Shown here one piece after another: positions 11,718 to 50,451 of a stretch of 64,000 bases of DNA. The notes under the pieces were generated by a model. It was not told the origin of the DNA, did not search any database, and saw nothing but the letters and a program-made list of their open reading frames with translations. A program made the translations under genes and the position numbers. This DNA comes from Patescibacteria group bacterium. Lineage in GTDB: Bacteria; Patescibacteriota; UBA1384; GWA2-35-9; JBASTP01. Position 1 is the stretch's first letter; the number at the start of each line of letters is the position of its first letter. Location: contig JBASTP010000002.1 in NCBI GenBank assembly GCA_049274945.1, positions 1,125 to 65,124 of the forward strand. Direction: 5' to 3'.

Positions 11718-11755
11718 TTTTTAGTAAAATAGTCCGAATTCCCCGAAGTGTCAAG

Positions 11756-17462: not shown

Positions 17463-17480
17463 AAAACTTAATGAAGGACT

Positions 17481-17567
17481 ACAGCCACAGATATTTGATC
17501 CACTGATTGACACTGATACACTCCATGGTATGATCTGTGGTTATCAGTGGATTAACATCAGTGGTTG
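17481..17567. repeat. intergenic palindromic repeat, copy 2
   Basis: agccacagatatttgatccactgattgacactgat...atctgtggttatcagtggattaacatcagtggttg. Confidence 0.8.
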
Positions 17568-17592: not shown

Positions 17593-18033
17593 ATGCGCAA
17601 ATCCCAAAAGATTGTTTTAATTTCGGTTGTGGTGCTCGTGTCGCTGGGCCTCGTGAGCAACTTTTCGGGTTTCGCAAGCAATTCAGGTGCCAGGCGGCAG
17701 CAACCCCGGAACGTCAAACCTAGAAACGATATTCAGCGCCGAGAGCCAACCAGCGCCGATCTTAAAGTTACCCGTGCACCCGATAACAAAACGGTTAACT
17801 ACCAGGGCTTCGAGGGTAAAACCGCGCTCGAGTTGCTCCGGCTCGTTGCCCACGTAGAGACCAAAAACTTCGGCGAGCTGGGCGATATGGTAACGGAAAT
17901 CGACGGTATTACCGCTGACAAAGGCAACTTTTGGGCGCTCTACGTGAACGGCAAGCAATCTGAAGTCGGGGCAAGTAGTTACAAAACCAAGCCAGGGGAG
18001 AGCGTGGAGTGGCGGTATGAGGAAATCAAATGA
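17593..18033 (+). CDS. membrane-anchored DUF4430 domain protein (transcobalamin-like fold; putative B12 binding)
   Basis: N-terminal TM; GNFWALYVNGKQSEVGASSYKTKPGESVEWRY matches DUF4430 pattern. Confidence 0.65.
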   Translation: MRKSQKIVLISVVVLVSLGLVSNFSGFASNSGARRQQPRNVKPRNDIQRREPTSADLKVTRAPDNKTVNYQGFEGKTALELLRLVAHVETKNFGELGDMVTEIDGITADKGNFWALYVNGKQSEVGASSYKTKPGESVEWRYEEIK

Positions 18034-18038
18034 TGACA

Positions 18039-18122
18039 CAACCACTGATATCTGATCCACTGATAACCACAGATTCTTGTGGCCTATCAGTGATTATCTG
18101 TGGCATAAATCTGTGGTTGTAG
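18039..18122. repeat. intergenic palindromic repeat, copy 3
   Basis: caaccactgatatctgatccactgataaccacagat...tgattatctgtggcataaatctgtggttg. Confidence 0.8.
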
Positions 18123-18131
18123 CCCTTCATT

Positions 18132-18635
18132 ATGACGTATCTCCTCATCTTCCTCGGTCTCGCCGCGCGCCTGCTGCCTCACTCCGCCAATTTCACCCCG
18201 GTGGGCGCGATTGGGCTTTTTGGCGGCGCCCAGCTGCCCAAACGGTTGGCGCTTGCCCTGCCGCTCATTGCGGTGTTCATTTCTGATCTTATCATCGGCT
18301 TTTATACCTGGCAGGTGATGCTATCGGTATACCTTGGTTTCCTGGTGTATGGCCTAGCTGGCCTGTGGATCCGGCAGGACTATTCGATCAAGCGCATGGT
18401 GGCTGGCACGCTCGGCGCCTCGGTATTTTTTTTCCTGCTTACCAACGCCGCGGTTTGGGCCTTTACGCCGCTCTACCCCCACACCCTTACTGGCCTTAGC
18501 GAGAGCTACCTGGCCGCGCTGCCATTTTTTCGCAACTCACTGCTGGGTGATTTCTTCTATACCGGAGCATTCTTCGGGGTCTACGAGTTGACACGATTTT
18601 GGGTTGCGGATAGAGTAAGTTTTGCAAGGAGGTGA
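18132..18635 (+). CDS. polytopic membrane protein, putative ECF-transporter S (substrate-capture) component
   Basis: 5-6 TM helices, LLPHSANFTPVGAIGLFGG N-terminal motif common in ECF S components. Confidence 0.5.
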   Translation: MTYLLIFLGLAARLLPHSANFTPVGAIGLFGGAQLPKRLALALPLIAVFISDLIIGFYTWQVMLSVYLGFLVYGLAGLWIRQDYSIKRMVAGTLGASVFFFLLTNAAVWAFTPLYPHTLTGLSESYLAALPFFRNSLLGDFFYTGAFFGVYELTRFWVADRVSFARR

Positions 18636-28109: not shown

Positions 28110-29343
28110 ACTGGTTTTTATTATTCTGGTGGTAGCGCTCGCCGGCGTGGTGGTGTGGCCGAAAGGCCCGGAAATCAAACTCGGCAGCTACCACAAAGCA
28201 ATATTGGTCCATAAGGGGCTCGATTTAGCCGGTGGTTCGCGATTGGTGTACGAACTTGACACCAGTAAAGTTGAACCAAAAGAACGTGAAGGCGCGGTAG
28301 TGGGGGTAGTACGCATTATTGAGAACCGCGTGAATGGCCTGGGAGTGGCGGAACCGGTGATCCAGGCTGCTAAGATTGCTGGCAAGGATGCCATTGTCGT
28401 GGAGCTGCCCGGCATCGAAGATTCCAAACAGGCAATCGAACTGATCGGCAAGACCGCCCAGTTAGAATTTTGGGAGTCCAGTGGAGCAGGGGAGAAAACT
28501 ACCTTTGGTCCAAGCGGTCTCACCGGCAAACACCTGGTTCACGCTCAGGTTGACTTCCAGCAAGGTGGGGCAGCCGCGACAGGCGAGCCGGTAGTTTCAC
28601 TCCAGTTCAACGGCGAGGGCACGCGGCTCTTCCGCGAAATTACGGAGCGGAACCTTGGTAAACCGGTGGCAATTGTGCTCGATCAGCAGATTGTCTCAGC
28701 GCCCACCGTCCAGTCAGCGATTGAAAACGGCAACGCCGTAATTTCCGGCAATTTCGATATCACCACGGCAAAACTCCTGGCAATTCAGCTCAACTCGGGC
28801 GCGCTGCCAGTGCCAGCAACCCTCATAGAAGAGCGAACGATCGGGCCGACGTTAGGCCGTAGTTCCGTTGAAAAATCACTCCTGGGGGGCCTTATGGCGG
28901 TGGTAGTTGTGGCCCTCTTTATGGTGAGTTACTACCGCGGAAGTGGCCTCGTGGCCGTAGTGGCGCTCGCTTGCTACGTGCTCCTGGTCCTGGCGCTCTT
29001 TAAGCTGATTCCGGTTACGCTCACCCTAGCGGGGATTGCCGGGTTTATTCTGACGATCGGGGCGGCGGTAGACGCTAATATTTTGATCTTTGAGCGCATG
29101 AAAGAAGAGCAGCGGCAGGGTAAAGGCGCCGCGGCAGTGCTTGATGAAGGCTTCCGCCGGGCCTGGAGTTCGATCCGAGATTCCAACGTTTCATCGCTCA
29201 TTACCGCCGCAATCTTATTTTATTTTGGCACCGGCTTGGTACGCGGCTTTGCCCTAACATTGGCGATTGGGATATTGGTGAGTATGTTTACGGCGATATA
29301 TGTAAGTAAGACATTATTAAAACTGATAATAAGGGAAAGGTAG
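28069..29343 (+). CDS. secD: protein translocase subunit SecD
   Basis: SecD periplasmic and TM regions; start may be GTG 28090. Confidence 0.88.
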   Translation: MISCGNKVRKNIFKLVFIILVVALAGVVVWPKGPEIKLGSYHKAILVHKGLDLAGGSRLVYELDTSKVEPKEREGAVVGVVRIIENRVNGLGVAEPVIQAAKIAGKDAIVVELPGIEDSKQAIELIGKTAQLEFWESSGAGEKTTFGPSGLTGKHLVHAQVDFQQGGAAATGEPVVSLQFNGEGTRLFREITERNLGKPVAIVLDQQIVSAPTVQSAIENGNAVISGNFDITTAKLLAIQLNSGALPVPATLIEERTIGPTLGRSSVEKSLLGGLMAVVVVALFMVSYYRGSGLVAVVALACYVLLVLALFKLIPVTLTLAGIAGFILTIGAAVDANILIFERMKEEQRQGKGAAAVLDEGFRRAWSSIRDSNVSSLITAAILFYFGTGLVRGFALTLAIGILVSMFTAIYVSKTLLKLIIRER

Positions 29344-29377
29344 CACCCTTCGCCACCCGTCAAAATAATTAAAAATC

Positions 29378-30286
29378 ATGCACTTAATGTACAAACGAAA
29401 AACTTGGTGGTTCGTTCTATCTGGTCTCACGGTCGTAATTGGCGTGATCAGCTTATTATTGTACGACATCCCATTTGGACTCGATTTTAAGGGTGGTGCG
29501 AACCTGGAAGTGAAGGTAGCTACAGGAGATAAAAAAACCGTAGAGGAAGCGGTCAAGGGAGTACTCGAACGGGCGACGGTGGTGGAAACCGATAAGAGTA
29601 CGTTCTTAATTAAATCCGAGAGCTACGACCAGAAGAAAAAAGAAGAGATATTGAATAAATTGGGGCAGGCCACCTCCGCCGAGGCTACGGCGGCCAAGGA
29701 GGTGCGGTTTGAAAATGTGGGGCCCACGGTTTCAAAGGATTTAACGCGCAAAGCAATTCTGGCCGTGGTGGCGGCGTCGGCCGGCATTATCCTCTACATC
29801 GCCTGGGCGTTCCGCAAGGTGGCGAAACCCGCCTCATCTTGGCGGTTTGGCATCTCGGCGATCGTGGCCATGCTCCATGATTTGTTTATTGTGATCGGCC
29901 TCTATAGCTTGGTGGCGCATTTCACCGGCTACGAGTTTGATTCGCTCACCGTTACGGCACTCCTTACCGTGATGGGATTCTCGGTGCACGATACCATTGT
30001 GGTGTTCGATCGGATTCGAGAGAACCTGCTGCTCCACCCGGGGGAATCGTTTGAGAGCCTGGTGGACCGCTCGGTTGTCCAAACCCTGGCGCGCTCGCTC
30101 AACACCTCGCTTACGGTAATTCTGGCCCTCCTGACGCTGTACCTGTTAGGAGGTGAGACCACACGCGGCTTTGTGTTTGCGCTCCTTATCGGTATTACGG
30201 TAGGCACCTATTCGAGTATCTTCGTGGCCTCGCCGCTCCTCGTGGTGTGGCAATCGTATGTTGCGAAACGACAAGATAACAGGTAA
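29378..30286 (+). CDS. secF: protein translocase subunit SecF
   Basis: FGLDFKGG N-terminal motif, 6 TM. Confidence 0.9.
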   Translation: MHLMYKRKTWWFVLSGLTVVIGVISLLLYDIPFGLDFKGGANLEVKVATGDKKTVEEAVKGVLERATVVETDKSTFLIKSESYDQKKKEEILNKLGQATSAEATAAKEVRFENVGPTVSKDLTRKAILAVVAASAGIILYIAWAFRKVAKPASSWRFGISAIVAMLHDLFIVIGLYSLVAHFTGYEFDSLTVTALLTVMGFSVHDTIVVFDRIRENLLLHPGESFESLVDRSVVQTLARSLNTSLTVILALLTLYLLGGETTRGFVFALLIGITVGTYSSIFVASPLLVVWQSYVAKRQDNR

Positions 30287-30296
30287 CATATAACAA

Positions 30297-30674
30297 ATGA
30301 TCTTCACCCTCATCGGTCTTATGATTGGCATCCTGGTTGGCTACTTTGCACCGGTTACCATTCCGGTGGTGTTTGCGCGCTACAGCGCGATTGCCATTTT
30401 GGGCATTGTTGACTCGCTCTTTGGCGCGTGGCGCGCCAACTTGCAGGGCAAATTTGACCAGACAATCTTCGTTTCCGGGCTGATTTTTAACATGGTGCTG
30501 GCGGTGCTGATTACCTACCTTGGCGACCAGCTGAACCTCGATCTTTACCTGGCGGTGATCATTGTGTTTACCTTGCGTATCTTCCAAAACATCGCCACCG
30601 TTCGCTACTCGTTCCTGACTCGGTTCCTAGGGCGCAAACGGGTACAGCAGGAGCTGTTTAAGGAAGAAAGCTAG
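30297..30674 (+). CDS. small basic membrane protein, DUF1290 (Sbp-like)
   Basis: IAILGIVDSLFGAWRANLQGKFD...LYLAVIIVFTLRIFQNIA matches DUF1290. Confidence 0.7.
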   Translation: MIFTLIGLMIGILVGYFAPVTIPVVFARYSAIAILGIVDSLFGAWRANLQGKFDQTIFVSGLIFNMVLAVLITYLGDQLNLDLYLAVIIVFTLRIFQNIATVRYSFLTRFLGRKRVQQELFKEES

Positions 30675-30701
30675 AGCGTACCTGAAAAAAGGAGTCAAAC
30701 T

Positions 30702-31196
30702 ATGTCAGATCAGGAACTACCTGAAGGAATTACGATTGATCGCGAGTTTTGGCAGGACGATCCACGGGGCGTTAATGTCAACTACGCAAAGGGCGAAATT
30801 GAAATCCAGGCGGAGTGCGTCGTAGAATACTACAATGAACAATCAGATTTATTCAGGATTGTACTGAAAGCACAAAACAGAGAAGACGATCATATCAAAA
30901 TTGGAAGATGTTTCAATTCCGTAGCACAGGCGGTGGCATGGATAAACAGCGATGTGGCAAACACATTCTTGGCTGGGCTTAGATGGCCGGGAGATATGGA
31001 GCACCCCACCCACGCCGTCTTCACCTTATGCTATACCATGGCCGATGAGTTGCCCCGCTTGGCGGAATTCGTAAAAAACGACCCTGGGCAGAAGGCTATC
31101 GAAGAGGCACTTATGCAACACTTCGAGACAGCGAAAGAGGCATTAGCTGTATTCGATCGCCTGCAAATAGAGAACGGAACAACGATGTCCACCTGA
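30702..31196 (+). CDS. hypothetical protein (164 aa) inside a direct-repeat-flanked insertion
   Basis: GGAG RBS; no known motif. Confidence 0.5.
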   Translation: MSDQELPEGITIDREFWQDDPRGVNVNYAKGEIEIQAECVVEYYNEQSDLFRIVLKAQNREDDHIKIGRCFNSVAQAVAWINSDVANTFLAGLRWPGDMEHPTHAVFTLCYTMADELPRLAEFVKNDPGQKAIEEALMQHFETAKEALAVFDRLQIENGTTMST

Positions 31197-31277
31197 TAAA
31201 GACTCAGAGCGCAATCATCCAGGTACGCAACAGGTTTGTGTACCTGTTTTTTTAAGGGGACGCACCCGGAGTGCCCA

Positions 31278-31300
31278 GGGTATTCCACTCCCGGAGTGGA
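31278..31300. repeat. REP-like hairpin copy (ggtattccactcccggagtggaa)
   Basis: Same core as 11009..11037. Confidence 0.7.
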
Positions 31301-31351
31301 AAGTGGACAGGAGCTGTTTAAGGAAGAAGGGTAAAAAAAAGACCCACGGAC

Positions 31352-32821
31352 TCATAGAGCCGTGGGTTGTTCGGTTGACGATCCAGGTTCGTAACCGATA
31401 TCTCGATCATGGTAGGTAAACAAAGGCGGCAGGTTCTCAACTTCCTGGTAACCGCGTTCGTGTTCGCGAACGAACGTGTAGCACTCAGGTGGCAGCCCGA
31501 TCGTGGCAGCTGCCAAACGAACTGCCTCTTCTGAAGCTTGGTAGCCCTCTGGCAACCGCCTGAAGTGAGGCCTCACTTGCTGGAAAAGGCGAAACAAGGG
31601 AGCCCGGGCACCGTCCTGGCGAACCAGTCTCACCTGAGTAACCTCTCGTATGCCCATCACAGCATCGAGTTTACCGGTGATAATTTTCCAGTAACTGTGG
31701 AGGCCAATATAGTAGAGGATGCGGTCTATTAAGATCTGACCATACCGAGGATCGTCACGCTCGAACACTAGGTCGGGATTCACGGAATTAAGCCGCGGAT
31801 TGAGCGTGAAGCTGATCGAGACGGGTTGGTCAAACTCCGTCAGCCAGAGCTTGGCTCGGGCATTAGGAAACTGGTCGGGAAGAAGCTGGAGTGAGGTGTA
31901 CTTTATCTGACGCATCTGGAGCGCTGAAACGTTCAGTTTAACTCGGTCAGCGCCACCAGTTCTCAGGCCATAGCGTGGTTCATCGATGATCTCGTGCCAC
32001 ATTTGAGCTTCGTGATCAAGGTACTGCTGCTCGTGTCGGTCGAACCACTCGATTAGCTCATTGAGCTTGAATTCATCCCTCTCAAACTGTTGATGAATCG
32101 AATGAACCAACTCGCTAAATTGGGAGGCTACAGCATCCGGTACCGGCAGACGAACTATCTCAGTCGCATTCCCGGCGAGCATGTAAAAAGCTGCCATGGA
32201 ATTCAATGCCTCCCCTGGCTGCCATTGACTGATCGGGACGATGGACAACTGGGTTGCTATGGTGCCGTAGTGAAGTAAGAGCATCTCAATCACCCTGACC
32301 GCCTGGCAATGACCTTGGACAGCCCCGATCAGGAGATTCTGCCAGGTTGCGCAACGATGCGCCAGATACACAACCTCACCAAACATATGGTGGAGGCTTG
32401 TGTACCACTTCAAGTTATCCTGTTGGTCGATTTCACCCCAGAGCGACTTCCTGGCGCGGTGGAAGAGATCGAAGAGCCTGACTGCGCGATCTACCTGCCC
32501 TCGCTCGGAGGTGAGAAAAACCAGCGCGAAGCGGGTCGGTTTCGCTTGATTCATTACAATCGAGCAGTAGGCTTTGGCAATCTTGATCACAGTCTCTGGG
32601 GAGAGTTGTTCAAAACGCTCGCCAACCTTCCGGCATGACCGTTCGATCAACCGTATTTGATGTCTCTTCAAGTTAGGCAGGTTCCAACACTGACCGAGGG
32701 CAAGACAAAAACGAAGCGTCTCAGGAATATCTTGCCAAGCCTGGCTGGCGGCAGCGCTAACAACGCGATCCCTGCCAGTCAGGATGGCCTGTTCAAACTC
32801 TGAAGTTTGCACAACTTTCAT
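31352..32821 (-). CDS. hypothetical protein (489 aa)
   Basis: Long uninterrupted ORF, no recognised motif. Confidence 0.55.
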   Translation of the reverse strand: MKVVQTSEFEQAILTGRDRVVSAAASQAWQDIPETLRFCLALGQCWNLPNLKRHQIRLIERSCRKVGERFEQLSPETVIKIAKAYCSIVMNQAKPTRFALVFLTSERGQVDRAVRLFDLFHRARKSLWGEIDQQDNLKWYTSLHHMFGEVVYLAHRCATWQNLLIGAVQGHCQAVRVIEMLLLHYGTIATQLSIVPISQWQPGEALNSMAAFYMLAGNATEIVRLPVPDAVASQFSELVHSIHQQFERDEFKLNELIEWFDRHEQQYLDHEAQMWHEIIDEPRYGLRTGGADRVKLNVSALQMRQIKYTSLQLLPDQFPNARAKLWLTEFDQPVSISFTLNPRLNSVNPDLVFERDDPRYGQILIDRILYYIGLHSYWKIITGKLDAVMGIREVTQVRLVRQDGARAPLFRLFQQVRPHFRRLPEGYQASEEAVRLAAATIGLPPECYTFVREHERGYQEVENLPPLFTYHDRDIGYEPGSSTEQPTAL

Positions 32822-33367
32822 CTCCTTTGAGTTAGGTTGTCAAACAGACGGCAGTGCCAGTATACCTTAAAACTTTTGATATGTCAAGGTAAATACGGAG
32901 TAAAATTAGGTTCAAAACAGGGGACTGGCGTGAAAAATGGCGAGGTATGGGAGTCGGGTAGGGGAGTCTCGCCGATTTTTTGAGGGGATGTCACCGGCTG
33001 ACGAAAGTAGGGTATATACACGCCCACATTTTGCGATGGCCGGGCAGGGGAGGACGTTGTAAAATGTGGGCCTGATTTTGCGTCATCACTCTTGAACCTG
33101 ATTTGATGACGCAAAATCAACATTGTACGACCTACCATCTCCATCTCTTTTAAGCCCCTTCACCAACCGATCGGGCAGATCGCGGATCATCGTTTTATTA
33201 TTTCCCTACCCTCCCCTGCATCCCCGGCGCTACCGGCAGTATTCCCCCGCTAAAAGGTGGGTGATAGCGCAATAAACACCCCTACTCCGCTATCCCCTGT
33301 CTCTATAAAAAAATAACAGGTTAGATAACCTGTAGTTGCCTACCTGTTTCTAACCTGTTGGAACCTG

Positions 33368-33658
33368 CTATTCCTGCCCTAAGGCCTGCTCGGCCTCTAG
33401 GAGATCTCTCCAGGTGAACGAATGGACAACGCCGGGCGCTGTAACTAAGTCAACCGGCATGCCGCTCGGAATGGTTGGCTTTTTGTCGCCTTTCGCGGCT
33501 GCCTCCGATGCATGTTCAATGGCATGGATGATAACGCTCACACAATGTAGGGCAACCTGCGTTGGCTCGGCGTGATCGGGTTCAAGGGAATCTGCCCCGA
33601 TTGCCATAGCATGCACATCAATTTCCACCCGGATACGGTTTTTGTGTCGTTTTGTCAT
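33368..33658 (-). CDS. hypothetical small protein (96 aa)
   Basis: ORF; 4-nt overlap (ATGA) with upstream gene. Confidence 0.45.
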   Translation of the reverse strand: MTKRHKNRIRVEIDVHAMAIGADSLEPDHAEPTQVALHCVSVIIHAIEHASEAAAKGDKKPTIPSGMPVDLVTAPGVVHSFTWRDLLEAEQALGQE

Positions 33659-33993
33659 TTCCCTACCTCCTGGATTTTCGTCACCGGTTGACTATGGCGC
33701 AAATCCAACTCCCCTACTTTTGTAACCAAGTATCTATCAAACACCTCGGCCATTTTGCGGTCAGTATTCAGCACCTCGAACACAGCCATATTCTCTGACG
33801 GATGCCGTATATTCAGGAAAAAGGCGCGAAAATATATGGAGTCGCCTAACCGTTCCACCCAACGGCTATCTCGCTGGATTTCGTTGAGCAGCTGGACAAC
33901 ATTCGCTGTCGATCCGGTGACGATGTGCCGCTTAATATCACTCGATTGAATCTTTCGCCGAACAGTGTGGAAAAGAGTATGAAGCGCGCCCAC
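33655..33993 (-). CDS. hypothetical small protein (112 aa)
   Basis: ORF; translationally coupled with 33368..33658. Confidence 0.45.
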   Translation of the reverse strand: MGALHTLFHTVRRKIQSSDIKRHIVTGSTANVVQLLNEIQRDSRWVERLGDSIYFRAFFLNIRHPSENMAVFEVLNTDRKMAEVFDRYLVTKVGELDLRHSQPVTKIQEVGK

Positions 33994-34039
33994 CTAAACC
34001 ACCTCAATTCTTCAAGAACTATGAGAACACTATACCAGA

Positions 34040-36655
34040 TTACTCCCCTATTTTCACGGTCTCGCCCGGTTTGACTTCCTGGACAGGACTCTCCCCTATC
34101 TTGGGGCGCTCACTCTGATTTTGCGGCGGAACCCCCTGCTCGAAGTAATGCCACGTTTTGCCCTGCTCGTCTTTGAGTTCCTGATGGTCTTTTACCGGTT
34201 GCTTTCGCGCCTCGCCGGCAATAGCTTTGTCGGTACTCGGGCCCGCCGGCGCTCTCCCCTCCTGCGACCATTCGCGAATCTTTTGCTCCACCAATTCTCG
34301 CGGCCGGCCATAACGCTCGTGAGAAAACGCAATAATTTTTTCCTTAAGACCGGCCCCTTCGCGCTGGGGCGGCAAGGTGATCGCCGAGAACGGATTTGAG
34401 GTAACGCCATCAATCGCCATCTTGACATAGACATGATGATTATCGAGGTTTACCAAATCGGTGGCCTCGAAGACCGGCTCAAACTCCTTAACAAGAAGCG
34501 GCGCGTCTTGCGCCCCCACCCGAAATGTCACGAGCGTACCTACGTTGCCAAAAATGGCTTTAGCCACAATTTCCTCCATCTGAGCGATGTACTGGTTGGT
34601 CATAATGAGGTTCAAGTGGTACTTGCGGGCCTCGGAAAGGATCACGGCGAACGACTCGGTGGCAAAGTTTTGGAACTCGTCAACGTAGAGGTAAAAATCA
34701 ACCCGCTCCGGCTCCGCCACGTTGGCGCGCTCGAGCGCCGCAATCTGAATCTTAGTGATCAGCAGAGCCCCCAGCAGCGCCGAGGTATCCTCACCGATCT
34801 TGCCGATTGAAAGGTCCATCAGCAGAATCTTCTTGCTGTCCATAATCTCCTTCATCGAAATGGTCGAAACCGGTTGACCGACAATGTTCCGAATAGTGGA
34901 GGTTGCCAAAAACTGGCCAACCTTGTTTTGAATCGGCGCCACTGCCTCGGTGCGGAACTTGGGGTCGTACTTTTCGTACTCGTTGATCCAAAAATCCTTG
35001 AGTACCGGGTCATCGAGGGCATCAACCACCTTCTTGCGGTAGCCCTTGTCTACCAGGATGCGCGTGACGCCCAGCATGGTGGCGTTGGGGTAGCCGATCA
35101 ACGAAAGAATCGCGTTGCGCAAAATGTACTCCAGGCGCGGCCCCCAGCTCTCGCCGAAAATCTTTTTGAAAATCCCCACCACACCGGAGGCAACGATATT
35201 TTTTAAATCCGGATCAACCTCCTCCATCACGTTGAACCCGATCGGGAAATCGCGGTCCCAGGGCGCCAGCCACACCACATCCTTGACCCGTTCCTCGGGA
35301 ATAAAGTCCAAAATGTGGCCGATCAAATCGCCGTGAGGATCAACCACGCCCACTCCCCTACCTTCGAGAATATCGTTAATAATCATATTCTCGAGCATCG
35401 TGGACTTGCCGGTGCCGGTTTTGCCGATGGCGTAGAGGTGGAGCCGCCGATCGTTACTCTTGATACCAAATCTAGAACTGACATTGCGGAAGTTGGTTTC
35501 GGCAAAGAGGGTAAGCTCCCCGGCGGGCACCGAGCCTTCGATCGGCAAATTGAGTGGCGGCTCGCCTTTCTTACTACCTACCCAAGCGATTGAGGGGGTG
35601 GCCACTGAAATGTTGGGCAGATGGAAAATCGAGGCAAGCTCCTCGATGTTCAGGACAAAGCCAGTCTCGGCAAAGCGGCGCTTCCGGAAATCCTCCAAGA
35701 ACTCGGGGGCGCTCGTGGGCGGCTTGCCAATGAAACCATTAAGGTTTGTGGTATTGAATTGCTTGAAGGCGCCCACAATGCCGTTTAGACGCAGGAGCGC
35801 GCTTGCTTCGTCGGCTGCTACTGCACCCAGGCGAATTTTAGTCTCAAAAGCGAGTTTGGTTACCTTGGTCTCAATCCCCTCGACTGCCGCGGCTTCAGGG
35901 CCTGAGAGTTCAACCTTGGTTGCCGACGGTTTTTCCCCTTCCGCAGGAGCTGGCCGAGTGAATGAGGTTACCGCCTCCGAAGCGAACGACAAGAGGCCCT
36001 TGGACACCCCGCTCACAATTGACTCCCCTTCCGGGTGTTGGCCGGCTTTCAGCATTCGTGCCCAGGTGATCCCCTTATTTTTCCAGGAGTCAGGCACCGG
36101 GCGCATCAATACCTGAATCCAGGCTCCTTCCCCTTCGGCAATTTTAGAAAGCACGCCGGTAATGCCGGCAAGCGGGTCAACTTCGAAGTTTAGAAAGGTT
36201 TTAATGGGAAAGACATCAGAGCGGACGAGCGTTACTTCCGCGCCCACAAACGAACGGTTCTCCGGCGGCGATTCTGGCACGTAGTCTTCGATCTCCTTAA
36301 TCTCTACCGTCGGATACTGGGCATAAATCTGACCTTCCACAAAATCACGCAGCGTTACCGGCACCCAGGCGTAGAACAGAATCTGGTTAGCCCGTGCCAC
36401 AATCTCAAAACCAAACTGTTCCTGGACCGGCACGCTCGCCGAGTAAATGCCGTGGAGCGCCGCAAACATATTTTCGGCCGAGAGCGGGCCTTTCTCGTTG
36501 TTCTTAGGCACTAAAATTAGCAGGAGTTGGTAGCGCCGGCCAGCCAGGTACTCGAGCTTCTTGCGGGTATCCTTCATGCGCAGCCACAGCACGATAACCG
36601 CCACCAATGAGGCGTAGATTACAAGCGCAGCGAGGATGCGGAGAAATAATTCCAT
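34040..36655 (-). CDS. membrane-anchored DUF87/VirB4/HerA-like P-loop ATPase with TraG/TraD-like C-terminal domain (871 aa)
   Basis: N-terminal TM helix; LHLYAIGKTGTGKST Walker A, VVDPHGD, YLYVDEFQNF Walker B, ARKYHLNLIMTNQY. Confidence 0.8.
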   Translation of the reverse strand: MELFLRILAALVIYASLVAVIVLWLRMKDTRKKLEYLAGRRYQLLLILVPKNNEKGPLSAENMFAALHGIYSASVPVQEQFGFEIVARANQILFYAWVPVTLRDFVEGQIYAQYPTVEIKEIEDYVPESPPENRSFVGAEVTLVRSDVFPIKTFLNFEVDPLAGITGVLSKIAEGEGAWIQVLMRPVPDSWKNKGITWARMLKAGQHPEGESIVSGVSKGLLSFASEAVTSFTRPAPAEGEKPSATKVELSGPEAAAVEGIETKVTKLAFETKIRLGAVAADEASALLRLNGIVGAFKQFNTTNLNGFIGKPPTSAPEFLEDFRKRRFAETGFVLNIEELASIFHLPNISVATPSIAWVGSKKGEPPLNLPIEGSVPAGELTLFAETNFRNVSSRFGIKSNDRRLHLYAIGKTGTGKSTMLENMIINDILEGRGVGVVDPHGDLIGHILDFIPEERVKDVVWLAPWDRDFPIGFNVMEEVDPDLKNIVASGVVGIFKKIFGESWGPRLEYILRNAILSLIGYPNATMLGVTRILVDKGYRKKVVDALDDPVLKDFWINEYEKYDPKFRTEAVAPIQNKVGQFLATSTIRNIVGQPVSTISMKEIMDSKKILLMDLSIGKIGEDTSALLGALLITKIQIAALERANVAEPERVDFYLYVDEFQNFATESFAVILSEARKYHLNLIMTNQYIAQMEEIVAKAIFGNVGTLVTFRVGAQDAPLLVKEFEPVFEATDLVNLDNHHVYVKMAIDGVTSNPFSAITLPPQREGAGLKEKIIAFSHERYGRPRELVEQKIREWSQEGRAPAGPSTDKAIAGEARKQPVKDHQELKDEQGKTWHYFEQGVPPQNQSERPKIGESPVQEVKPGETVKIGE

Positions 36656-37265: not shown

Positions 37266-39731
37266 TTAAACTTTTACTAATGGTTCGTTACTCCCTGTTG
37301 GCACACTCGCCGGTTTGGTACGCTCGGTAAGCTCGCTCTCGATCATCTTGCGGTCCTTGCCGTAGGAAAGCCTCGAAAGTTGCCTCGTTGCCTCTGCCAT
37401 TTGCTTATCCTTAACGACTGGCGATTTGATCCCGCGCATCGAGAAGGGTTTGCTGGGGGTGCCGTCAATCAGCAGTTTAACATATGTCGAGAACCGGTCA
37501 AGGTTCGCAAGGTCGTCAATCGACACCCCCGGGAACTCCTTGACCATAAACTCGGCGTCAGACGCGCCGATCCGGTAACTGATAAGCGTGCCGGCGTTGC
37601 CGACCACTGAATCGCGGATCTTTTCGGTGAGCTGGGCAATATATTGGTTGGTGATATGGAGGCCAATGTGGTACTTGCGCGCTTCAGAGAGAATGGTGGC
37701 AAAGCTGTCGGTTGTGAAATTTTGGAACTCGTCAACGTAGACGTAAAAATCTCTGCGCTCTTCCTCGGGGGTGTCGGCCCGCGAAAACGCGGCGGTCTGG
37801 AGCTTGGCAATAATAATCATGCCCAAAAGGTAGCTATTCATCTCGCCGATCTTGCCCTTGGACAGGTTAACCAGCAGGATTTTGCGATCGTCCATTAGCT
37901 TGCGCATATCAAACCCTGATTTAGCCTGGCCAATGATGTTCCGCATTAAGTCGTTCGTCATAAATCGGCCGAATTTGGAAATAAAATAGTTGTACATTTC
38001 GGACTTATGGAAATCGGCCGTTTTGGCGAGCTGCTGCTCCCAAAAACTCCGCACCACGGGATCGGTCACAAAACTCACCGCGCGTTCGCGGAAACTGTCG
38101 TCGGTAAAGAGGCGCGGAATCTCAATGAGCGAGCCGCCTTCGGGCAGGTTCATCACCGTGAGGGCGGCATTGCGGCCCCAGTGCTCGAATTGGGGCCCTA
38201 CAATGCCGGTGCGGTTGGGATCGTACAGCTTGTAGAAAATCTCGATCCATTCCTGGATCAAAAAGTCCTTTTCCTCGGGCCGCTTCCACTCCAGGAGGTT
38301 CAGCCCAACCGGCCGCTCGGTGTCTGAGGGGTCAAACAGAATTACATCTTCTGCCCGCTCCTTGGGAATCTTGGCGAGAATCGATTCAATGGCATCGCCC
38401 AGCGGATCAATAAAGCAGCAGCCGGCGCCCGAACGAATATCCTGCTCGATCATGTTTTCAAACAGCGTCGTCTTGCCTACGCCAGTTTTGCCGATCATGA
38501 AAATGTGGCGGAGCCGATCAGGCGGCTTAATGCGCACCTCGTTGGTCTCGCCCCGATAGACCGACTCGCCAATCACCGTGCCCTCCCGGGGCAGGTTTGG
38601 CGGCGGCGCCAAGACTTTGCTCATCATCCAGCGGATGTTCGGGGTGTCGGTGTAGCGATTGGGCAGGTGAAAGAGCGAGGCGAGCTCCTCGGAGTTCATA
38701 ATCAGTGACTTGGCCCTGTCAAAAGTCCGGAAAATGAAATCTGTGGCAACTTGGGCCGAATCTCGGGCAATAATCGGCTTAAAGCCGTTCCAGGCCGGTG
38801 TGGCAAACTGGGAGAAGGCCGAAACAATGTTGTCGCGGTGGGCCTGGGCGGTCATGGCATCCGGGCCAACCGCCACAATGCGGATCACGGTCTTGAACCC
38901 GGGCTTACTCCCCTTCTCGTTGAACGCCTTCATGAGATCCTCCTGTACCGGTGTCAGCCGCCAGGATTTGTTGCCGCTGCTCTCGGGCCCGGCCCTGCCT
39001 GCAGCCGAGGCCGCTACCCCGCCCGAGAACGCCTCAAAAAGCTCGTGGACCACCCGCATGGTTGGTGAGCGGTAGATGTAGCCGGTTTTGCCCTCGAGCA
39101 CGTGTTTGGCGGCAATCGCCGGGTGCACCCGCCAGCCCTCATCGAGCGGTTTAATGAGAATCTGAATCGCCGCGGCTGATTTATCGCCCAGTTTGGCAAA
39201 GGCGCCGGTCAGGTTATTGATCGGATCTGCCTCCAGATATTTGAAGGTGCGGATCGGAAAAATGAACCGCTTGGTGAACTCGAGGGTTGCGGCGGCGATC
39301 ATGCCCTTGGTTTGGAAAATGTTGTGCCCGGTCGCCCGCTCAACCGAAACCTTGGGGAAAAAACTGTAGAGCTGCCGCTCTAAAAGACTCGCCAGGTGGC
39401 CCGGGCAGGAAACGTAAAAAGAAACCAAATTACCCTCAACCACCATCTCAAAACACATAATATCCTGCTCGCCGGTCAGCTTGTGGGCTAAATCGCGTTT
39501 GAGAGTGGAAGATAACGAGGCAAAAAATTGTTCAGTGGGCGCGAGCGCCTCCTTAAAATCCTTAGGTTGGTTGGCATTAGCATCATCCTGCTGACGGAAA
39601 ATCTCTTTTGGCATGGTCACGAGAAATGTGACTTGATCAACAATATGGTGGGCCTTGTGCTTGCGAACATGGCGCCAAACCACAAAAAGCCCAATCGCCC
39701 AGAGTACAAGGAAGAGGAGAAGGTAAATCAT
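37266..39731 (-). CDS. membrane-anchored DUF87/VirB4/HerA-like P-loop ATPase paralog (821 aa)
   Basis: HIFMIGKTGVGKTT, FIDPLGD, FYVYVDEFQNF, ARKYHIGLHITNQY; same architecture as 34040..36655. Confidence 0.8.
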   Translation of the reverse strand: MIYLLLFLVLWAIGLFVVWRHVRKHKAHHIVDQVTFLVTMPKEIFRQQDDANANQPKDFKEALAPTEQFFASLSSTLKRDLAHKLTGEQDIMCFEMVVEGNLVSFYVSCPGHLASLLERQLYSFFPKVSVERATGHNIFQTKGMIAAATLEFTKRFIFPIRTFKYLEADPINNLTGAFAKLGDKSAAAIQILIKPLDEGWRVHPAIAAKHVLEGKTGYIYRSPTMRVVHELFEAFSGGVAASAAGRAGPESSGNKSWRLTPVQEDLMKAFNEKGSKPGFKTVIRIVAVGPDAMTAQAHRDNIVSAFSQFATPAWNGFKPIIARDSAQVATDFIFRTFDRAKSLIMNSEELASLFHLPNRYTDTPNIRWMMSKVLAPPPNLPREGTVIGESVYRGETNEVRIKPPDRLRHIFMIGKTGVGKTTLFENMIEQDIRSGAGCCFIDPLGDAIESILAKIPKERAEDVILFDPSDTERPVGLNLLEWKRPEEKDFLIQEWIEIFYKLYDPNRTGIVGPQFEHWGRNAALTVMNLPEGGSLIEIPRLFTDDSFRERAVSFVTDPVVRSFWEQQLAKTADFHKSEMYNYFISKFGRFMTNDLMRNIIGQAKSGFDMRKLMDDRKILLVNLSKGKIGEMNSYLLGMIIIAKLQTAAFSRADTPEEERRDFYVYVDEFQNFTTDSFATILSEARKYHIGLHITNQYIAQLTEKIRDSVVGNAGTLISYRIGASDAEFMVKEFPGVSIDDLANLDRFSTYVKLLIDGTPSKPFSMRGIKSPVVKDKQMAEATRQLSRLSYGKDRKMIESELTERTKPASVPTGSNEPLVKV

Positions 39732-40426: not shown

Positions 40427-40933
40427 TTATTTCAACTCAATCTTGCCACCAGCCGCTTCGATCTTCTTTTTGGCTTCTTCCGCTGCGTCTTTCTTGGCGT
40501 CTTTCAAGAGTTCTTTGGGCGGGGCGTCAACAAGGTCCTTGGCTTCTTTGAGGCCAAGGTCTGAGCGAATTTCCCGCACGGCTTTAATCACGGCGATTTT
40601 CTGGGCGCCAGAATCGGTGAGTACTACGGTGAACGATGATTTTTCATCTGCGGCATCGGCACCAGCAGCTGGTGCGGCACCGGCCGCGGGAGCGGCCATC
40701 ATTGCGGCCGATACGCCAAAGCGGTCTTCAAGTTCCTTGACAAGCTCGGCTAAATCGGCAACCTTGAGGTTCTCGATTTCTTTGATGATATCTTTAAACT
40801 TGCCGCTTGGTGCCGCCTTTTCTTCTTTGGCTGGCGCCGCTGGCTTTTCTTCAGCTTTATCTTCTTCAACGTTTGCCTCTTCGGCTTTTGGTTCTTCTGT
40901 TTTAGTTTCTTCTTTTGGTTGTTCGTCGGCCAT
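40427..40933 (-). CDS. rplL: 50S ribosomal protein L7/L12 with ~45-aa Lys/Glu-rich N-terminal extension
   Basis: [26 protein letters not shown]...[22 protein letters not shown]. Confidence 0.9.
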
Positions 40934-40949
40934 ACTATTTCTCCATTAT

Positions 40950-41046
40950 AAGGTAGTAAAACAACCACTGATGTTAATCCACTGATAATCACTGATTGGG
41001 CATACCTGATCTGTGTTTATCTGTGGATCAAATATCTGTGGTTGTA
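40950..41046. repeat. intergenic palindromic repeat, copy 4
   Basis: taaggtagtaaaacaaccactgatgttaatccactgataatcactgatt...atctgtgtttatctgtggatcaaatatctgtggttg. Confidence 0.85.
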
Positions 41047-41067
41047 CTCCTTCATTACTTATTAATT

Positions 41068-41768: not shown

Positions 41769-42482
41769 TTATGTCAAGGCCAGTTTAACCCCCGGGCCCA
41801 TGGTGGATGAGAGCACGGCCCCCGCGAGGCGGGTGCGGGGCAGAACTTTGAGCAGCGCCTCAACGTTGGCTTTGATTTTGGCAGCGTCCCAGGAGACTTT
41901 ACCAACGGCTACGTGGATATTGCCCAGTGAATCGGCGCGGTACTCAATTTTGCCCTTAGTAAACTCCTCGGCAGCCTTCTTGGCATCTTCCACAATAGTG
42001 CCGGCCTTAGGATTGGGCATCAGCCCCTTGGGCCCGAGCACCTTCGCCACTTTAGCTAATTTTGGCATCATCGCTGCCTCGGCTAGCAGGACATCGAACT
42101 CGAGTTTGCCTTTGGCGATCTCCTCGATCAAACTGTCCGAGGCAATGGCAACTTTTGGGAGTTTTGGCGTGCCAGCTGGCAACGTGAGCGTGCCGCGCAG
42201 CGCGTCTTGCCCCTTTTTGCTAAGCGTGGCAATGTGAAATTCAATCGTGCCGTCGAACTTGGTCCATGAAGTCTTTTTTGCGAGCTCGATCGCTTCGTCA
42301 AGATCGTAGCGATTGCGGCGGTCTACTTGGGAGCGTGCTTCAATAAACCGTTTGCCGCGCACGCGGGGCGGGCGGACCCGCTGCACCTTCTTCTTTTCTT
42401 CTTCAACTTTAGCAGGAGCAGCTTCGTTAGTTCCTGGCTGCTCTTGTAAGTCTTGAATTACTTTGGTCTTGGTTTGGCCCAT
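41769..42482 (-). CDS. rplA: 50S ribosomal protein L1 (N-terminal extension)
   Basis: L1 family pattern (KFDGTIEFHIATL...). Confidence 0.92.
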   Translation of the reverse strand: MGQTKTKVIQDLQEQPGTNEAAPAKVEEEKKKVQRVRPPRVRGKRFIEARSQVDRRNRYDLDEAIELAKKTSWTKFDGTIEFHIATLSKKGQDALRGTLTLPAGTPKLPKVAIASDSLIEEIAKGKLEFDVLLAEAAMMPKLAKVAKVLGPKGLMPNPKAGTIVEDAKKAAEEFTKGKIEYRADSLGNIHVAVGKVSWDAAKIKANVEALLKVLPRTRLAGAVLSSTMGPGVKLALT

Positions 42483-42498
42483 GATAATTTTCCTTAAA

Positions 42499-42597
42499 AA
42501 GGTAGGTAAACAACCACTGATGTTAATCCACTGATAATCACTGATTGGGGCATACCTGATCTGTGTTTATCTGTGGATCAAATATCTGTGGTTGTGG
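42499..42597. repeat. intergenic palindromic repeat, copy 5
   Basis: Near-identical to copy 4. Confidence 0.85.
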
Positions 42598-42607
42598 TAC
42601 TTCATGC

Positions 42608-43099
42608 TTAAATTGTGATTGTTTTTTCCTCAAACTTCCCTGTACCAAGTGAGTCTAGCACAAGCTGAGCGGCAGCGTCAATCACCTTCTCCAGCTCCTC
42701 TATCTCGCTTTTGGTGAATGACTTGAGCACATACTCCTCGGCCTCCACGCCCTGGGGCGGCCGTGAAACACCAATGCGCACGCGCACAAAATCATCAGAA
42801 CCGAGGGTATCAATAATTGACTGCACTCCCTTATGCCCGCCCGAGGCCCCGCCCATTCGCACCCGCAGAGTCCCCAGCGGTAGGTCGATATCATCATGAA
42901 TCACCACCAACTCCCCTACTCTATCCTTGAACTGTGCCACTGCCTCGCCCGACCGGTTCATGAAGGTGTCAGGTTTAATAATTTTGAGTTTTGAGTTTTG
43001 AGTTTTGAGTTGAATCTTATCCGCCACCATAAAACCCACGTTGTGGCGCGTATTTTCGTATTTTTTACCCGGATTCCCGAGAGCGACGATGGTATACAT
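42608..43099 (-). CDS. pth: peptidyl-tRNA hydrolase
   Basis: IVALGNPGKKYENTRHNVGF; contains in-frame (TTTTGAG)x4 heptamer run at 42978..43010. Confidence 0.92.
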   Translation of the reverse strand: MYTIVALGNPGKKYENTRHNVGFMVADKIQLKTQNSKLKIIKPDTFMNRSGEAVAQFKDRVGELVVIHDDIDLPLGTLRVRMGGASGGHKGVQSIIDTLGSDDFVRVRIGVSRPPQGVEAEEYVLKSFTKSEIEELEKVIDAAAQLVLDSLGTGKFEEKTITI

Positions 43100-43110
43100 C
43101 TTATCTTAAT

Positions 43111-43205
43111 GAAGTTATACAACCACTGATATCTGATCCACTGATAACCACTGATTATACCTAGCGTGATCTGTGTTGATCTGTGGCATAAATCTGTGGT
43201 TGTGG
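43111..43205. repeat. intergenic palindromic repeat, copy 6
   Basis: gaagttatacaaccactgatatctgatccactgataaccactgatt...gatctgtggcataaatctgtggttg. Confidence 0.85.
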
Positions 43206-43219
43206 TCCTACCTTATTTA

Positions 43220-43525: not shown

Positions 43526-43541
43526 AATGTTAACCTCTAAA

Positions 43542-43634
43542 GGAAGTTATACAACCACTGATATTTAATCCACTGATAGACACTGATTTAGGTATCTTAT
43601 CTGTGATTATCTGTGGCATAAATCTGTGGTTGTA
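43542..43634. repeat. intergenic palindromic repeat, copy 7
   Basis: ggaagttatacaaccactgatatttaatccactgatagacactgatt...ttatctgtggcataaatctgtggttg. Confidence 0.85.
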
Positions 43635-43647
43635 GTCCTACCTTATT

Positions 43648-44613
43648 TTATTTAGGTTGCTGTTTTAAATATTCTTGCACAAATTGGTCGAGTCCGCCAC
43701 CCAGCACGCTTGCCGTATCGGCCGTTTCATACCCGGTGCGGTGGTCTTTGACGAGTTGGTACGGCTGCAGCACGTAGCTGCGAATTTGGTTACCCCACTC
43801 GACCGATAATTTCTCGCCGCGCAATTCATCGACTTTTTCTTTGTGCTTTTGCTGCAGTAACGTCGCGAGCTTGGCTTTGATGACTTTCATGGCGATTTCT
43901 CTGTTTTGCGACTGTGATCGCTCGTTCTGGATCGCCACGGTAATGCCGGTTGGCACATGGGTTACCCGAACCGCGGTCTCCAACTTGTTGACATTCTGGC
44001 CGCCGTGGCCGCCCGCGCGGTAGGTATCAATTTTGAGGTCTTGCGCCGGAATATCTGCCACGGTTTGCGATTCAATTTCCGGCACGATTTCAACGAGCGA
44101 AAAACTGGTATGTCGCGCTTTATCGGCGTCGTAGGGCGAGATCCGCACCAGCCGGTGCACGCCAGCTTCGGATTTAAGCAGGCCATAGGCGCTGCCCCCG
44201 CTCACTTTGGCCTGGGCTGATTTTATGCCTGCTTCCTGGCCGGCCGACTCTTCGAGCAATTGGAATGTGAGCCCTTTGCGCTCGCTGTAGCGGCGGTACA
44301 TTTCAAGGAGCATGCTGGCCCAATCTTGGGCTTCGGTGCCGCCGGCGCCGGCGTGGATTCCCAGGTAGGCGGGCTTGTCGTCGTAGGGGCCGGAAAACTG
44401 GGCAAGCTGCGTAAGCGGCGCGAGGTCGGCATCGGTTTGCGCCGCGTCAAATTGCCCAATTAAGCCCTGGAGCTGGCTGTACTGGCTCGAAACCGCCCGC
44501 GCATTTTCTTGATCGCGCCAAAAATCAGGCGCAGCCATCGCGGTTTCAAACTCGCGCACCTGTGCCCGCTTTTCGTCGATTTTGAGCAATGCTCCAATTT
44601 CTACCTTATTCAT
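43648..44613 (-). CDS. prfB: peptide chain release factor 2 (no programmed +1 frameshift apparent)
   Basis: GGQ motif ([11 protein letters not shown]), SPY(F) motif; ATG 44613 (ORF track begins at TTG). Confidence 0.85.
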
Positions 44614-44616
44614 AAT

Positions 44617-44666
44617 GAAGTTAAACAACCACTGATATTAAACCACAGATAACCACTGATAATTAC
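44617..44666. repeat. intergenic palindromic repeat, half copy 8 (left arm only)
   Basis: gaagttaaacaaccactgatattaaaccacagataaccactgataatt. Confidence 0.7.
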
Positions 44667-45044: not shown

Positions 45045-45087
45045 AACGGCCCTATTTTACCAGAAAACCCTGGCTTATCCCAGGGTT

Positions 45088-45137
45088 TTCTTATCTGTGT
45101 TTATCAGTGGATCAGATATCTGTGGTTGTAGTCCTAC
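45088..45137. repeat. intergenic palindromic repeat, half copy 9 (right arm only)
   Basis: cttatctgtgtttatcagtggatcagatatctgtggttgtagtcctacc. Confidence 0.7.
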
Positions 45138-45147
45138 CTTATTATTG

Positions 45148-45837
45148 TTATCCGAGTAGCGCGTCGAGCAGTTTGCGCTCTTTGCGGTAGCGGCCGTAGG
45201 TCAGAGAAGCGGCGGCGAGCGATGCGGCGGTAAAGCCGTCGAGCGCACCAGCTTTGGGAAGCTGCTTAGGCTTAACGGGATTAGTTTCCTGCTTTGGAGC
45301 TTGAGCAACTACTGTGGCTGGGCTGGTTGAGGATTGGGCTGATCCGCCCGCACCGCCGGCACCACCACCTGCGCCGCCGCCAGATCCGCCTGCGCCACCT
45401 GTAGCAGTTACCGAACCACTACCAGAACTTGAGGATGCGGCTCCGCCTCCTCCACCGGCGCCTCCTGCGGCACCTGAAGAACCGGTAGCAGCAGCGCCAC
45501 CACCGCCTCCGCCACCACCGCCTCCGCCGGCTGCGGTAGCTACTTGATTAGAACCCGAAGAGCTAGACGCGGCACCGCCACCGCCTCCACCTCCACCAGC
45601 GCCGCCACCTGCGGCCGAACCGGTCGAACTAGAGGATGCGGCTCCGCCGCCTCCACCGCCACCGCCGGCACCACCGGCGGCACCTGAAGAACCGGCTGAA
45701 CCGCTCGCACCCGCGGTGCCTGAAGCACCCGGTGCGCCAGCAGCTCCGCCAGCACCGCCCGTAGCTTGCGCTAAGGCAGCGGCAGCTAACATAACAGAGA
45801 GAATGATTGATGAAGAAATGATTAGATACTTTTTCAT
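45148..45837 (-). CDS. Gly/Ala/Ser-rich secreted low-complexity protein with C-terminal LPKAG sortase-like sorting signal
   Basis: Signal peptide, long G/A/S repeats, QLPKAG + hydrophobic stretch + RYRKERK tail; AAGGAG RBS. Confidence 0.6.
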   Translation of the reverse strand: MKKYLIISSSIILSVMLAAAALAQATGGAGGAAGAPGASGTAGASGSAGSSGAAGGAGGGGGGGGAASSSSTGSAAGGGAGGGGGGGGAASSSSGSNQVATAAGGGGGGGGGGGAAATGSSGAAGGAGGGGGAASSSSGSGSVTATGGAGGSGGGAGGGAGGAGGSAQSSTSPATVVAQAPKQETNPVKPKQLPKAGALDGFTAASLAAASLTYGRYRKERKLLDALLG

Positions 45838-45925
45838 GCCTATGACTCCTTTATTAGTAAACACTTGATTATATACCTTTTTTCTATTTTGTCAACCCCT
45901 CCTACCCATAATAAAAGCTCCTTGC

Positions 45926-47515: not shown

Positions 47516-47516
47516 A

Positions 47517-50445: not shown

Positions 50446-50451
50446 ATTAAT

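Follow-up and report, generated by a model that had tools for sequence, protein, structure and literature searches.

Two alternative gene cassettes, probably joined in tandem at a REP, behind the secDF-DUF1290 genes of a Patescibacteria genome

Additive 'displacement' arrays that keep fragments of the conserved upstream gene have been documented, and the same logic has been proposed for stacked effector-immunity arrays and for displaced Rhs 3' ends (PMC5361080). Products of homology-facilitated illegitimate recombination (HFIR) are known in naturally transformable Acinetobacter, S. pneumoniae and P. stutzeri (primary references in PMC5361080). The present analysis concerns a locus related to both, found in a 64,000-nt stretch of DNA (hereafter the window; contig JBASTP010000002.1, positions 1,125 to 65,124) from the core chromosome of a Patescibacteria metagenome-assembled genome (MAG). 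It lies 3' of the gene for DUF1290 ('small basic protein'), where two gene cassettes of opposite orientation meet at a repetitive extragenic palindromic (REP) element followed by a second copy of the last codons of that gene.

As in HFIR products, one side of the arrangement is colinear through homology and the other is a new join with little or no homology, DNA has been added, and a fragment of the anchor gene is duplicated. Unlike the described cases, the one in the window rests on comparative anatomy, its illegitimate end falls at a REP boundary, and donor and recipient seem to be variants of the same locus, not foreign to one another. With the Rhs and contact-dependent inhibition (CDI) orphan cdiA-CT/cdiI arrays and the Vibrio type VI secretion system arrays (PMC5361080) the locus shares a conserved gene end, a variable cassette, a relic preceding a further cassette and a hypervariable slot. 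It differs from them in that neither cassette protein (164 and 489 aa) yielded a toxin, immunity or secretion-effector signature, the second cassette lies on the opposite strand with a promoter and terminator of its own, the relic measures 27 nt and a single level is stacked. REP/RAYT systems (REPtron, REPIN; PMC3333891, PMC3116915, PMC6006769) combine a single-copy Y1/HUH transposase, recognizable by NHFH and YIHLNP motifs, with palindromes that lie on either side of its gene and are dispersed in intergenic regions; they too have a counterpart in the window.

The scar is best read as the product of an ordinary recombination event of a known kind, with no footprint of a new mobile element. We regard it as probable, if well short of certain, that the locus is a mosaic of two alternative slot architectures joined in tandem, the scar of an illegitimate recombination with one end anchored by homology. 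The elements concerned are, from left to right:

30297-30674, plus strand: DUF1290 gene, 125 aa, C-terminus ...QQELFKEES* (Pfam PF06947, E=5e-30)
30648-30668, plus strand: first copy of the 21-mer, coding for Q E L F K E E and followed by AGC TAG
30702-31196, plus strand: open reading frame (ORF) of the 164-aa gene (A cassette), with a GGAG ribosome-binding site (RBS) at 30691-30694, 7 nt ahead of the ATG
31220-31253, plus strand: T1, intrinsic terminator from a terminator scan, hairpin CAGGTACGC...GTGTACCTG followed by seven T residues (fold -15.6 kcal/mol)
31255-31261, no strand assigned: AGGGGAC, 7 bp repeating the beginning of the noncoding region, directly after T1
31265-31309, plus strand: REP unit of 45 nt, delimited by local alignment to the REP at 11742-11788
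31308-31334, plus strand: relic of the DUF1290 3' end, second copy of the 21-mer plus GGG TAA in frame; non-coding, with no upstream ORF
31333-31366, minus strand: T2, intrinsic terminator of the 489-aa gene, hairpin CCCACGG/CCGTGGG with the stop TGA in the loop, then eight U residues
31352-32821, minus strand: ORF of the 489-aa gene (B cassette)
32859-32887, minus strand: promoter-like site of the 489-aa gene, TTGACA-17-TATACT, 11/12 matches
32919-32925, no strand assigned: resident copy of AGGGGAC at the start of the noncoding region (AGGGGACTGGCGTGAAAAATGGCGAGG...)

Contigs encoding DUF1290 homologues were retrieved as comparison loci (L-numbers below). Both parental architectures are present among these relatives, and none of the relatives tested carries the relic. 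The slot is bounded by the conserved secDF-DUF1290 operon on one side and by a conserved noncoding region and a block of type IV secretion system (T4SS)-like genes on the other. Architecture A, as in L007 and L010, reads DUF1290(...EES*), 164-family gene, T1, noncoding region; architecture B, with its left part as in L006 and its right part as in L011, reads DUF1290(...EEG*), T2, 489-family gene on the minus strand, promoter, noncoding region. The window follows A through 31261, including 7 nt of the right flank, then has the REP, then follows B from 31308, 21 nt before the last DUF1290 codon; each cassette carries a few bases of the opposite flank. A single new join would suffice: the REP after T1, at its 3' boundary, would have been linked to a second DUF1290 copy 27 nt ahead of that copy's stop. 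This join most likely arose by HFIR between DNA of two conspecific strains, with the anchored end provided by homology in secF/DUF1290 or in the noncoding region and the other end joined illegitimately at the REP. We favour HFIR because the anatomy is that of one parent's left and the other's right, because both architectures exist in relatives, and because DprA (54393-55457) and a ComF-like phosphoribosyltransferase protein (55494-56804) are encoded in the window, genes whose presence is consistent with natural transformation. While the anatomy can be read directly, we infer the mechanism, the conspecific parents and the presence of the REP before the join. The structure alone fits either cassette as the incoming one.

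The sequence CAGGAGCTGTTTAAGGAAGAA occurs exactly twice in the window, on the plus strand in both cases (30648-30668 and 31308-31328), with 660 bp from start to start and 639 bp in between. No other match with up to three mismatches was found in the window, and none appeared in 100 dinucleotide shuffles. Similarity around the 21-mer reaches 26 nt at 92%. The 27-nt relic is colinear with the functional DUF1290 end of L006 (...GAAGAG GGA TAA AAAAAAG...). DUF1290 in the window retains its 125 aa, with AGC TAG in place of GGG TAA as last codon and stop. GGGTAA goes with the T2/489 cassette and is present in L011 too, where the 489-family gene does not adjoin DUF1290; since it belongs to that cassette, the 21/21 identity gives way abruptly, the last codon and stop differing at 3/6 positions. 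The second 21-mer is today functionless, lying untranscribed between T1 and T2.

An earlier note on this DNA had described a 21-bp direct repeat made of the last codons of the DUF1290 gene, and both statements hold, with coordinates that were 2-3 nt too low. Its idea of a 3'-end duplication generated by recombination agrees with the nature of the second copy, a relic of the DUF1290 end, and its concern that the 21-mer might be a terminator common throughout the genome is answered by a coding sequence with only two copies in the window. The 164-aa hypothetical gene with its own GGAG RBS was recovered as described. So was the REP at the distal junction: the unit at 31265-31309 is real and belongs to a family with a cognate transposase in the same window.

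The comparison with L006 (79% nucleotide identity in DUF1290) reveals an empty site. There, DUF1290 ends ...GAAGAG GGA TAA and runs straight into AAAAAAG-CCCACAG...CCGTGGG; beyond this terminator lies a convergent 483-aa gene whose product is 69% identical to the 489-aa protein of the window. Blastn alignments pair L006 956-1326 with window 30297-30667 and L006 1308-2856 with window 31309-32866. On L006 the two alignments overlap at the repeat only, which is the classic empty-site signature; measured against L006, the window carries an insertion of 660 bp with the 21-mer at its borders. In L007, 11 nt separate T1 from the sequence AGGGGAATACTGGTGTTAAAAGTGGCGAG..., which aligns with the window from 32919 onward. 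Relative to this locus, the window has a 1664-bp insertion bounded by the 7-bp repeat AGGGGAC and made up of the REP, the 27-nt relic, T2, the 489-aa gene and its promoter. AGGGGAC occurs five times per 64 kb, as expected by chance; it is informative because it is placed immediately after T1, not because it is rare, and constitutes moderate evidence. A second copy of the locus's own DUF1290 21-mer was absent from L002, L003, L006, L007 and L010 (best matches with 7-9 mismatches, equal to the shuffled null), the search in L010 covering the 218 bp assembled beyond its 164-family gene. A possible decayed relic in L003 (CATGTTTGTT, ahead of T2') is too short to evaluate.

These comparisons also bear on which DNA is extra. 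An exhaustive HMMER search of 1.84 billion representatives returned just two homologues of the 164-aa protein, P0097 (151 aa, 44%) and P0098 (129 aa, 46%). Both genes sit immediately 3' of DUF1290, as do, with the window's gene, all three known members of the family. The gene order is secF-DUF1290-151aa in L007, L008 and L009, and secD-secF-DUF1290-176aa-129aa in L010. L007 and the window are colinear over 29352-30780, from secF across the DUF1290 stop into the 164-family gene, and have in common the Ser-stop ending of DUF1290 and the leader ACCTGAAAAAAGGAG. A word-indexed search with the 164-aa protein returned only the protein itself, scans of genome contigs with DUF1290 and with the 164-aa family alignment gave no match, and a metagenome scan with the family yielded no locus beyond those already known. 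The 640-bp insertion proposed in the earlier note thus survives in part: an empty site where DUF1290 abuts the 489-family gene does exist in L006, and the segment is bounded relative to it, but the segment is not foreign, the 164 family being native 3' of DUF1290 in L007 and L010, which have this arrangement without the duplication. The similarity search that the note had proposed for the 164-aa protein points the same way, both homologues lying directly 3' of DUF1290. Compared with L007 and L010 it is not the DNA of the 164-aa gene that is out of place; the REP, the relic and the 489-aa cassette are extra. The target-site duplication suggested in the same note fails on the length of the repeat (21-26 bp) and on the lack of terminal inverted repeats and of a transposase.

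Two element-based explanations can be weighed on these data. A 660-bp cassette devoid of integrase, akin to a cis-mobilizable element or a satellite, could have integrated site-specifically, with the 21-mer as att core and the element supplying the last codon and stop. This would account for a repeat that overlaps a gene 3' end, for the restoration of the gene (AGC TAG for GGG TAA) and for the precise empty site in L006, all of which recall integrative and cis-mobilizable elements. Unlike such elements, the segment yielded no integrase or recombinase, and neither did the approximately 40 window ORFs scanned with Pfam. The gene is syntenic and free of the repeat elsewhere: L007 has a 164-family gene at this position but lacks a distal att copy, and none is present in the 218 bp assembled downstream in L010; the gene family is known from this syntenic position only. 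The distal junction has 7 nt of right flank and a REP, which are not expected in a circular cassette. We consider such an integration very unlikely. Still further down the scale, and barely credible, is a target-site duplication made by the transposase of a small transposon or a miniature inverted-repeat transposable element, for which a direct repeat flanking a discrete segment would speak. The segment has no terminal inverted repeats (the sole flanking inverted repeat, 9 bp, GCGTACCTG/CAGGTACGC, is part of T1), no transposase, no second copy in the window, and a gene that is syntenic in relatives. Typical transposase target-site duplications (about 2-14 bp) are far shorter than 21-26 bp, and IS200/RAYT-type elements make no target duplication.

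The two 21-mers of the window are identical, and the orthologous 21-mers differ from them by 2-5 synonymous changes: two in L015 (93% nucleotide identity), two in L002 (90%) and four in L014, with L015 and L014 the closest relatives. Because the window copies are identical, the orthologues differ and no tested relative has the relic, the join is probably recent; we infer that it took place between near-identical DUF1290 alleles, in conspecific strains or in sister chromosomes. Since the cassettes are flanked by direct repeats (21 bp and 7 bp), deletion could give back an L006-like or an L007-like locus. Deletion between the 21-mers would leave a locus 660 bp shorter, reading ...GAAGAAGGGTAA. 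If such deletions instead lay in the past, an ancestor that already had both cassettes and repeats would have given rise to L006-like and L007-like loci with just the architectures observed, and the window would keep the ancestral state. Both gene families occur on either side of the clade's deepest split, and L003 keeps a T1 remnant and a minus-strand cassette, which fits such an ancestor. Yet the window's 21-mers are identical where orthologues differ at 2-5 synonymous sites even in relatives at 87-93% nucleotide identity, a non-coding relic is expected to decay over such a time, and no relic was seen in the relatives tested. The origin of the repeats would be left to explain, and 21 bp is very short for gene conversion. 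An ancient stacked locus therefore seems decidedly unlikely.

Attention turns to the REP at the seam. Its core palindrome, CCACTCCCGGAGTGG, lies at 31285-31299, and the unit occupies all but 0-3 nt of the space between the two flank fragments. Its last two nucleotides (CA, 31308-31309) are the first two of the relic, placing the end of the REP 0-2 nt into it. Related copies were found at approximately 1004-1024, at 11013-11035 and at 11742-11788, and no gene-end duplication accompanies any of these three other window copies. A half-REP considered at 32893-32912 was too weak to be accepted. The last two of the related copies border the following gene:

11040-11717, minus strand: REP-associated Y1/HUH transposase (RAYT), 225 aa, with the motifs NHFH (PNHFHFLL) and RYIHLNP

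The RAYT scores 31.3 bits with Pfam Y1_Tnp, above the cut-off of 23; its best NCBIfam match is REP_Tyr_transpos (E=8e-14), with 51.7 bits, below the equivalog cut-off of 80. It is flanked by a perfect 33-nt palindrome (about 11008-11040, containing the REP at 11013-11035) and by the 47-nt REP at 11742-11788. The REPtron-like unit as a whole (11013-11788) has a GC content of 0.425 against 0.526 for the window. The Y1 HUH transposase motifs together with the flanking and dispersed REPs make a convincing case that the window encodes a REP/RAYT system, which departs from those described in its NCBIfam score below the equivalog cut-off and in a putative role in the seam. In L003 (1880-2015) a lineage-specific palindrome, CCAGGAGCG...CGCTCCAGGAGCGG, occupies the position of the window REP just after T1, and in L010 (6583-6608) a palindrome, ACTACTACCATaccaATGGTAGTAGT, is found right after T1, at the contig end.

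The illegitimate end may have come from the REP itself, through nicking by the RAYT or breakage at the hairpin. In a sub-variant of the favoured reading, a RAYT nick in single-stranded DNA at the 3' boundary of the REP, or replication stalled by its hairpin, would have produced an end that was passed to the DUF1290 3' end of a second copy or of incoming DNA. The REP ends at 31309, 0-2 nt from the start of the relic; a bona fide RAYT with the same REP family is encoded some 20 kb from the seam; and palindromes recur at this boundary, a REP-like one separating the T1 remnant from the minus-strand cassette's terminator in L003 and another coming right after T1 in L010. The E. coli TnpA-REP is described in PMC3333891 as cleaving and recombining REP/BIME (bacterial interspersed mosaic element) single-stranded DNA in vitro. 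For the RAYT of the window, the link to the seam is one of position; REPs often gather by terminators, where the position may be incidental, and the other three window REPs lack flanking gene-end duplications. No RAYT is known to us to have linked a REP with non-REP DNA or to have stacked genes, and REP/RAYT systems are not known to move or join protein-coding cassettes. On balance we hold this sub-variant to be rather unlikely. A bolder version, in which the REP is the active site and a domesticated REP/RAYT system would stack and shuffle cassettes in a hypervariable slot of Patescibacteria genomes, with REPs as attC-like boundaries, appears unlikely. The slot holds one REP only; its two cassettes lie on different strands, and both have a terminator of their own, the 489-aa one also a promoter. 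In these respects, and in the lack of any integrase among the approximately 40 ORFs scanned, the locus is unlike an integron cassette.

We also considered that the assembly had concatenated co-occurring A-type and B-type strain variants. The repeat is exactly 21 nt long and 21 is a common smallest k-mer size, the multi-copy REP could tangle assembly graphs, and the right junction is without independent support. A de Bruijn path would however need real k-mers leading from the REP into the 21-mer, and the end of the REP and the DUF1290 3' region have no long word in common; the relic differs from the first copy exactly as the L006 allele does (GGG TAA). In addition, three independent assemblies (L003, L004 and L005) have the L003 arrangement, in which the REP-like element is directly followed by the terminator of the minus-strand cassette, so that an arrangement of this general type is real in the clade. 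There is only a slim chance that the junction is an artefact.

Several observations nevertheless weigh against a tandem join of two locus variants by HFIR. The REP-relic junction is present in this MAG alone, the one independent contig (L001) covering 29879-31037, and searches for other contigs with the right junction, which took a 46-aa ORF, itself spurious, and a presumed partial gene product as queries, found none. Microhomology between the window's REP end and the 21-mer amounts to 2 nt (CA) at most, against 3-10 nt in typical HFIR. No conspecific strain with A only or B only was found, the parental architectures occurring in relatives at 79-87% nucleotide identity. That the REP lies precisely at the seam is coincidental unless its own end was the breakpoint, and the AGGGGAC repeat is short (7 bp). 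Finally, L003 combines a REP-like palindrome and a minus-strand cassette with a remnant of T1 but has no relic, indicating that stacking does not always leave one.

The two cassettes were further characterized. The 164-aa protein had no match in Pfam, NCBIfam or PADLOC. Its confidently predicted fold (AlphaFold2, three-sequence alignment, mean confidence score pLDDT 80.9) comprises a five-stranded antiparallel sheet followed by three long helices, and a search for structural neighbours of the model gave no significant fold match. T1 is 94% identical in L007 and 86% in L010, with one stem pair appearing as G-C in L007, G.U in the window and A-U in L010. Because the gene starts 27 nt past the DUF1290 stop, has an RBS, is not preceded by a promoter-like site in this interval and has T1 behind it, its placement suggests co-transcription with secDF-DUF1290, with T1 ending the unit. 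In L007 (2516-2590) the gene for P0097 contains CCTGACAG twice in a row, an 8-nt tandem duplication by which the frame is shifted; the frame that lies downstream encodes AEEAKANFERLRAKYEPE, which matches the C-terminus AKEALAVFDRLQIENG of the window protein. Three independent assemblies (L007, L008 and L009) have the same sequence here.

For the 489-aa protein just three homologues were found (69%, 66% and 36% identity); it had a weak, sub-threshold match to GASH in Pfam and none in NCBIfam or PADLOC. T2 (fold -18.7 kcal/mol, z=-3.1) is kept in L006 and L011. The promoter and 5' leader of the minus-strand cassette (32822-32925) are kept in L003 (3492-3600), in front of a 491-aa gene, and in L006 (2801-2900), in front of the 483-aa gene. 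The 489-aa protein and the 491-aa protein of L003 are unrelated (BLASTP E=0.37), yet have the same conserved promoter region. The pattern suggests that coding sequence and terminator are exchanged as a unit while the promoter stays in place. The interval 29000-34200 had no Rfam match. In GC content, overall and at third codon positions, the cassettes are just mildly below the core genes.

The slot 3' of secDF-DUF1290 is hypervariable, its content differing in nearly every lineage:

L002: RelE/ParE-type pair and a 105-aa gene after DUF1290 (read by eye)
L003: 3' half of T1, REP-like palindrome, unrelated 491-aa gene behind the same conserved promoter
L006: B cassette alone
L007: A cassette alone
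L010: extra 176-aa gene and A cassette
L014/L015: yet another sequence

In L002, the closest relative with a long contig, a 60-aa ORF and then a RelE/ParE-like toxin ORF, identified by eye, replace the 164-aa gene (821-1260). A sliding-identity scan of secF-DUF1290 against relatives gave no recombination-tract signal. Between the slot and the T4SS-like genes lies a conserved noncoding region of approximately 430 nt (32926-33360), which L002, L003, L007 and L011 have too. A perfect inverted repeat of 16 bp (33073-33088/33104-33119) and an imperfect one of 23 bp (33019-33041/33052-33074) lie within this region, which had no match in Rfam. The T4SS-like genes include two for paralogous TrwB/VirD4-like coupling-protein ATPases (34040-36655 and 37266-39731, minus strand; 871 and 821 aa), which have in common a 174-nt repeat at 70% identity and adjoin the variable slot in L007 and L011 too.

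Elsewhere the window carries ftsA, ftsZ, a class II ribonucleotide reductase gene, sbcC, manC, secD, secF, DUF1290, the two TrwB/VirD4-like ATPase genes, those for L12/L10/L1, pth, the gene for a release factor (RF), cysS, topA, dprA, ftsW and ileS. DUF1290 closes the conserved block manC-secD-secF-DUF1290, and its homologues in seven related loci have 91-98% amino acid identity. A metallo-beta-lactamase-fold protein is encoded at 5912-6814 (minus strand) and matches the anti-Pycsar Apyc1 family with 56.5 bits (Pfam cut-off 50). Two minus-strand ORFs (45148-45864 and 46601-47908) consist mostly of GC-rich 9-nt periodic repeats and would encode Gly/Ala-rich repetitive proteins; the 435-aa one had no Pfam match. 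An abundant intergenic repeat family is built from 8-mers such as ATCTGTGG, CCACAGAT and CCACTGAT, often as inverted pairs closely upstream of genes. It far outnumbers the REP family, with 14 or more sites per 64 kb, and could be a regulator-binding array or another mobile repeat. Its sites are:

3757-3882, 17466-17552, 18023-18133, 40930-41058, 42479-42608, 43104-43216, 43536-43646
44594-44664, 45082-45142, 48746-48828, 50347-50447, 51066-51192, 57718-57770, 58192-58318

Unless the REP/RAYT system proves causal, current understanding is unchanged by this locus. It brings out three items: a hypervariable slot 3' of secDF-DUF1290 and next to T4SS-like genes, a small gene family that is restricted to the clade and linked to DUF1290, and a REP/RAYT system in a Patescibacteria genome. 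Above all, it offers a base-pair-resolved example of accessory genes being added, not replaced, in an uncultivated bacterium with a reduced genome.

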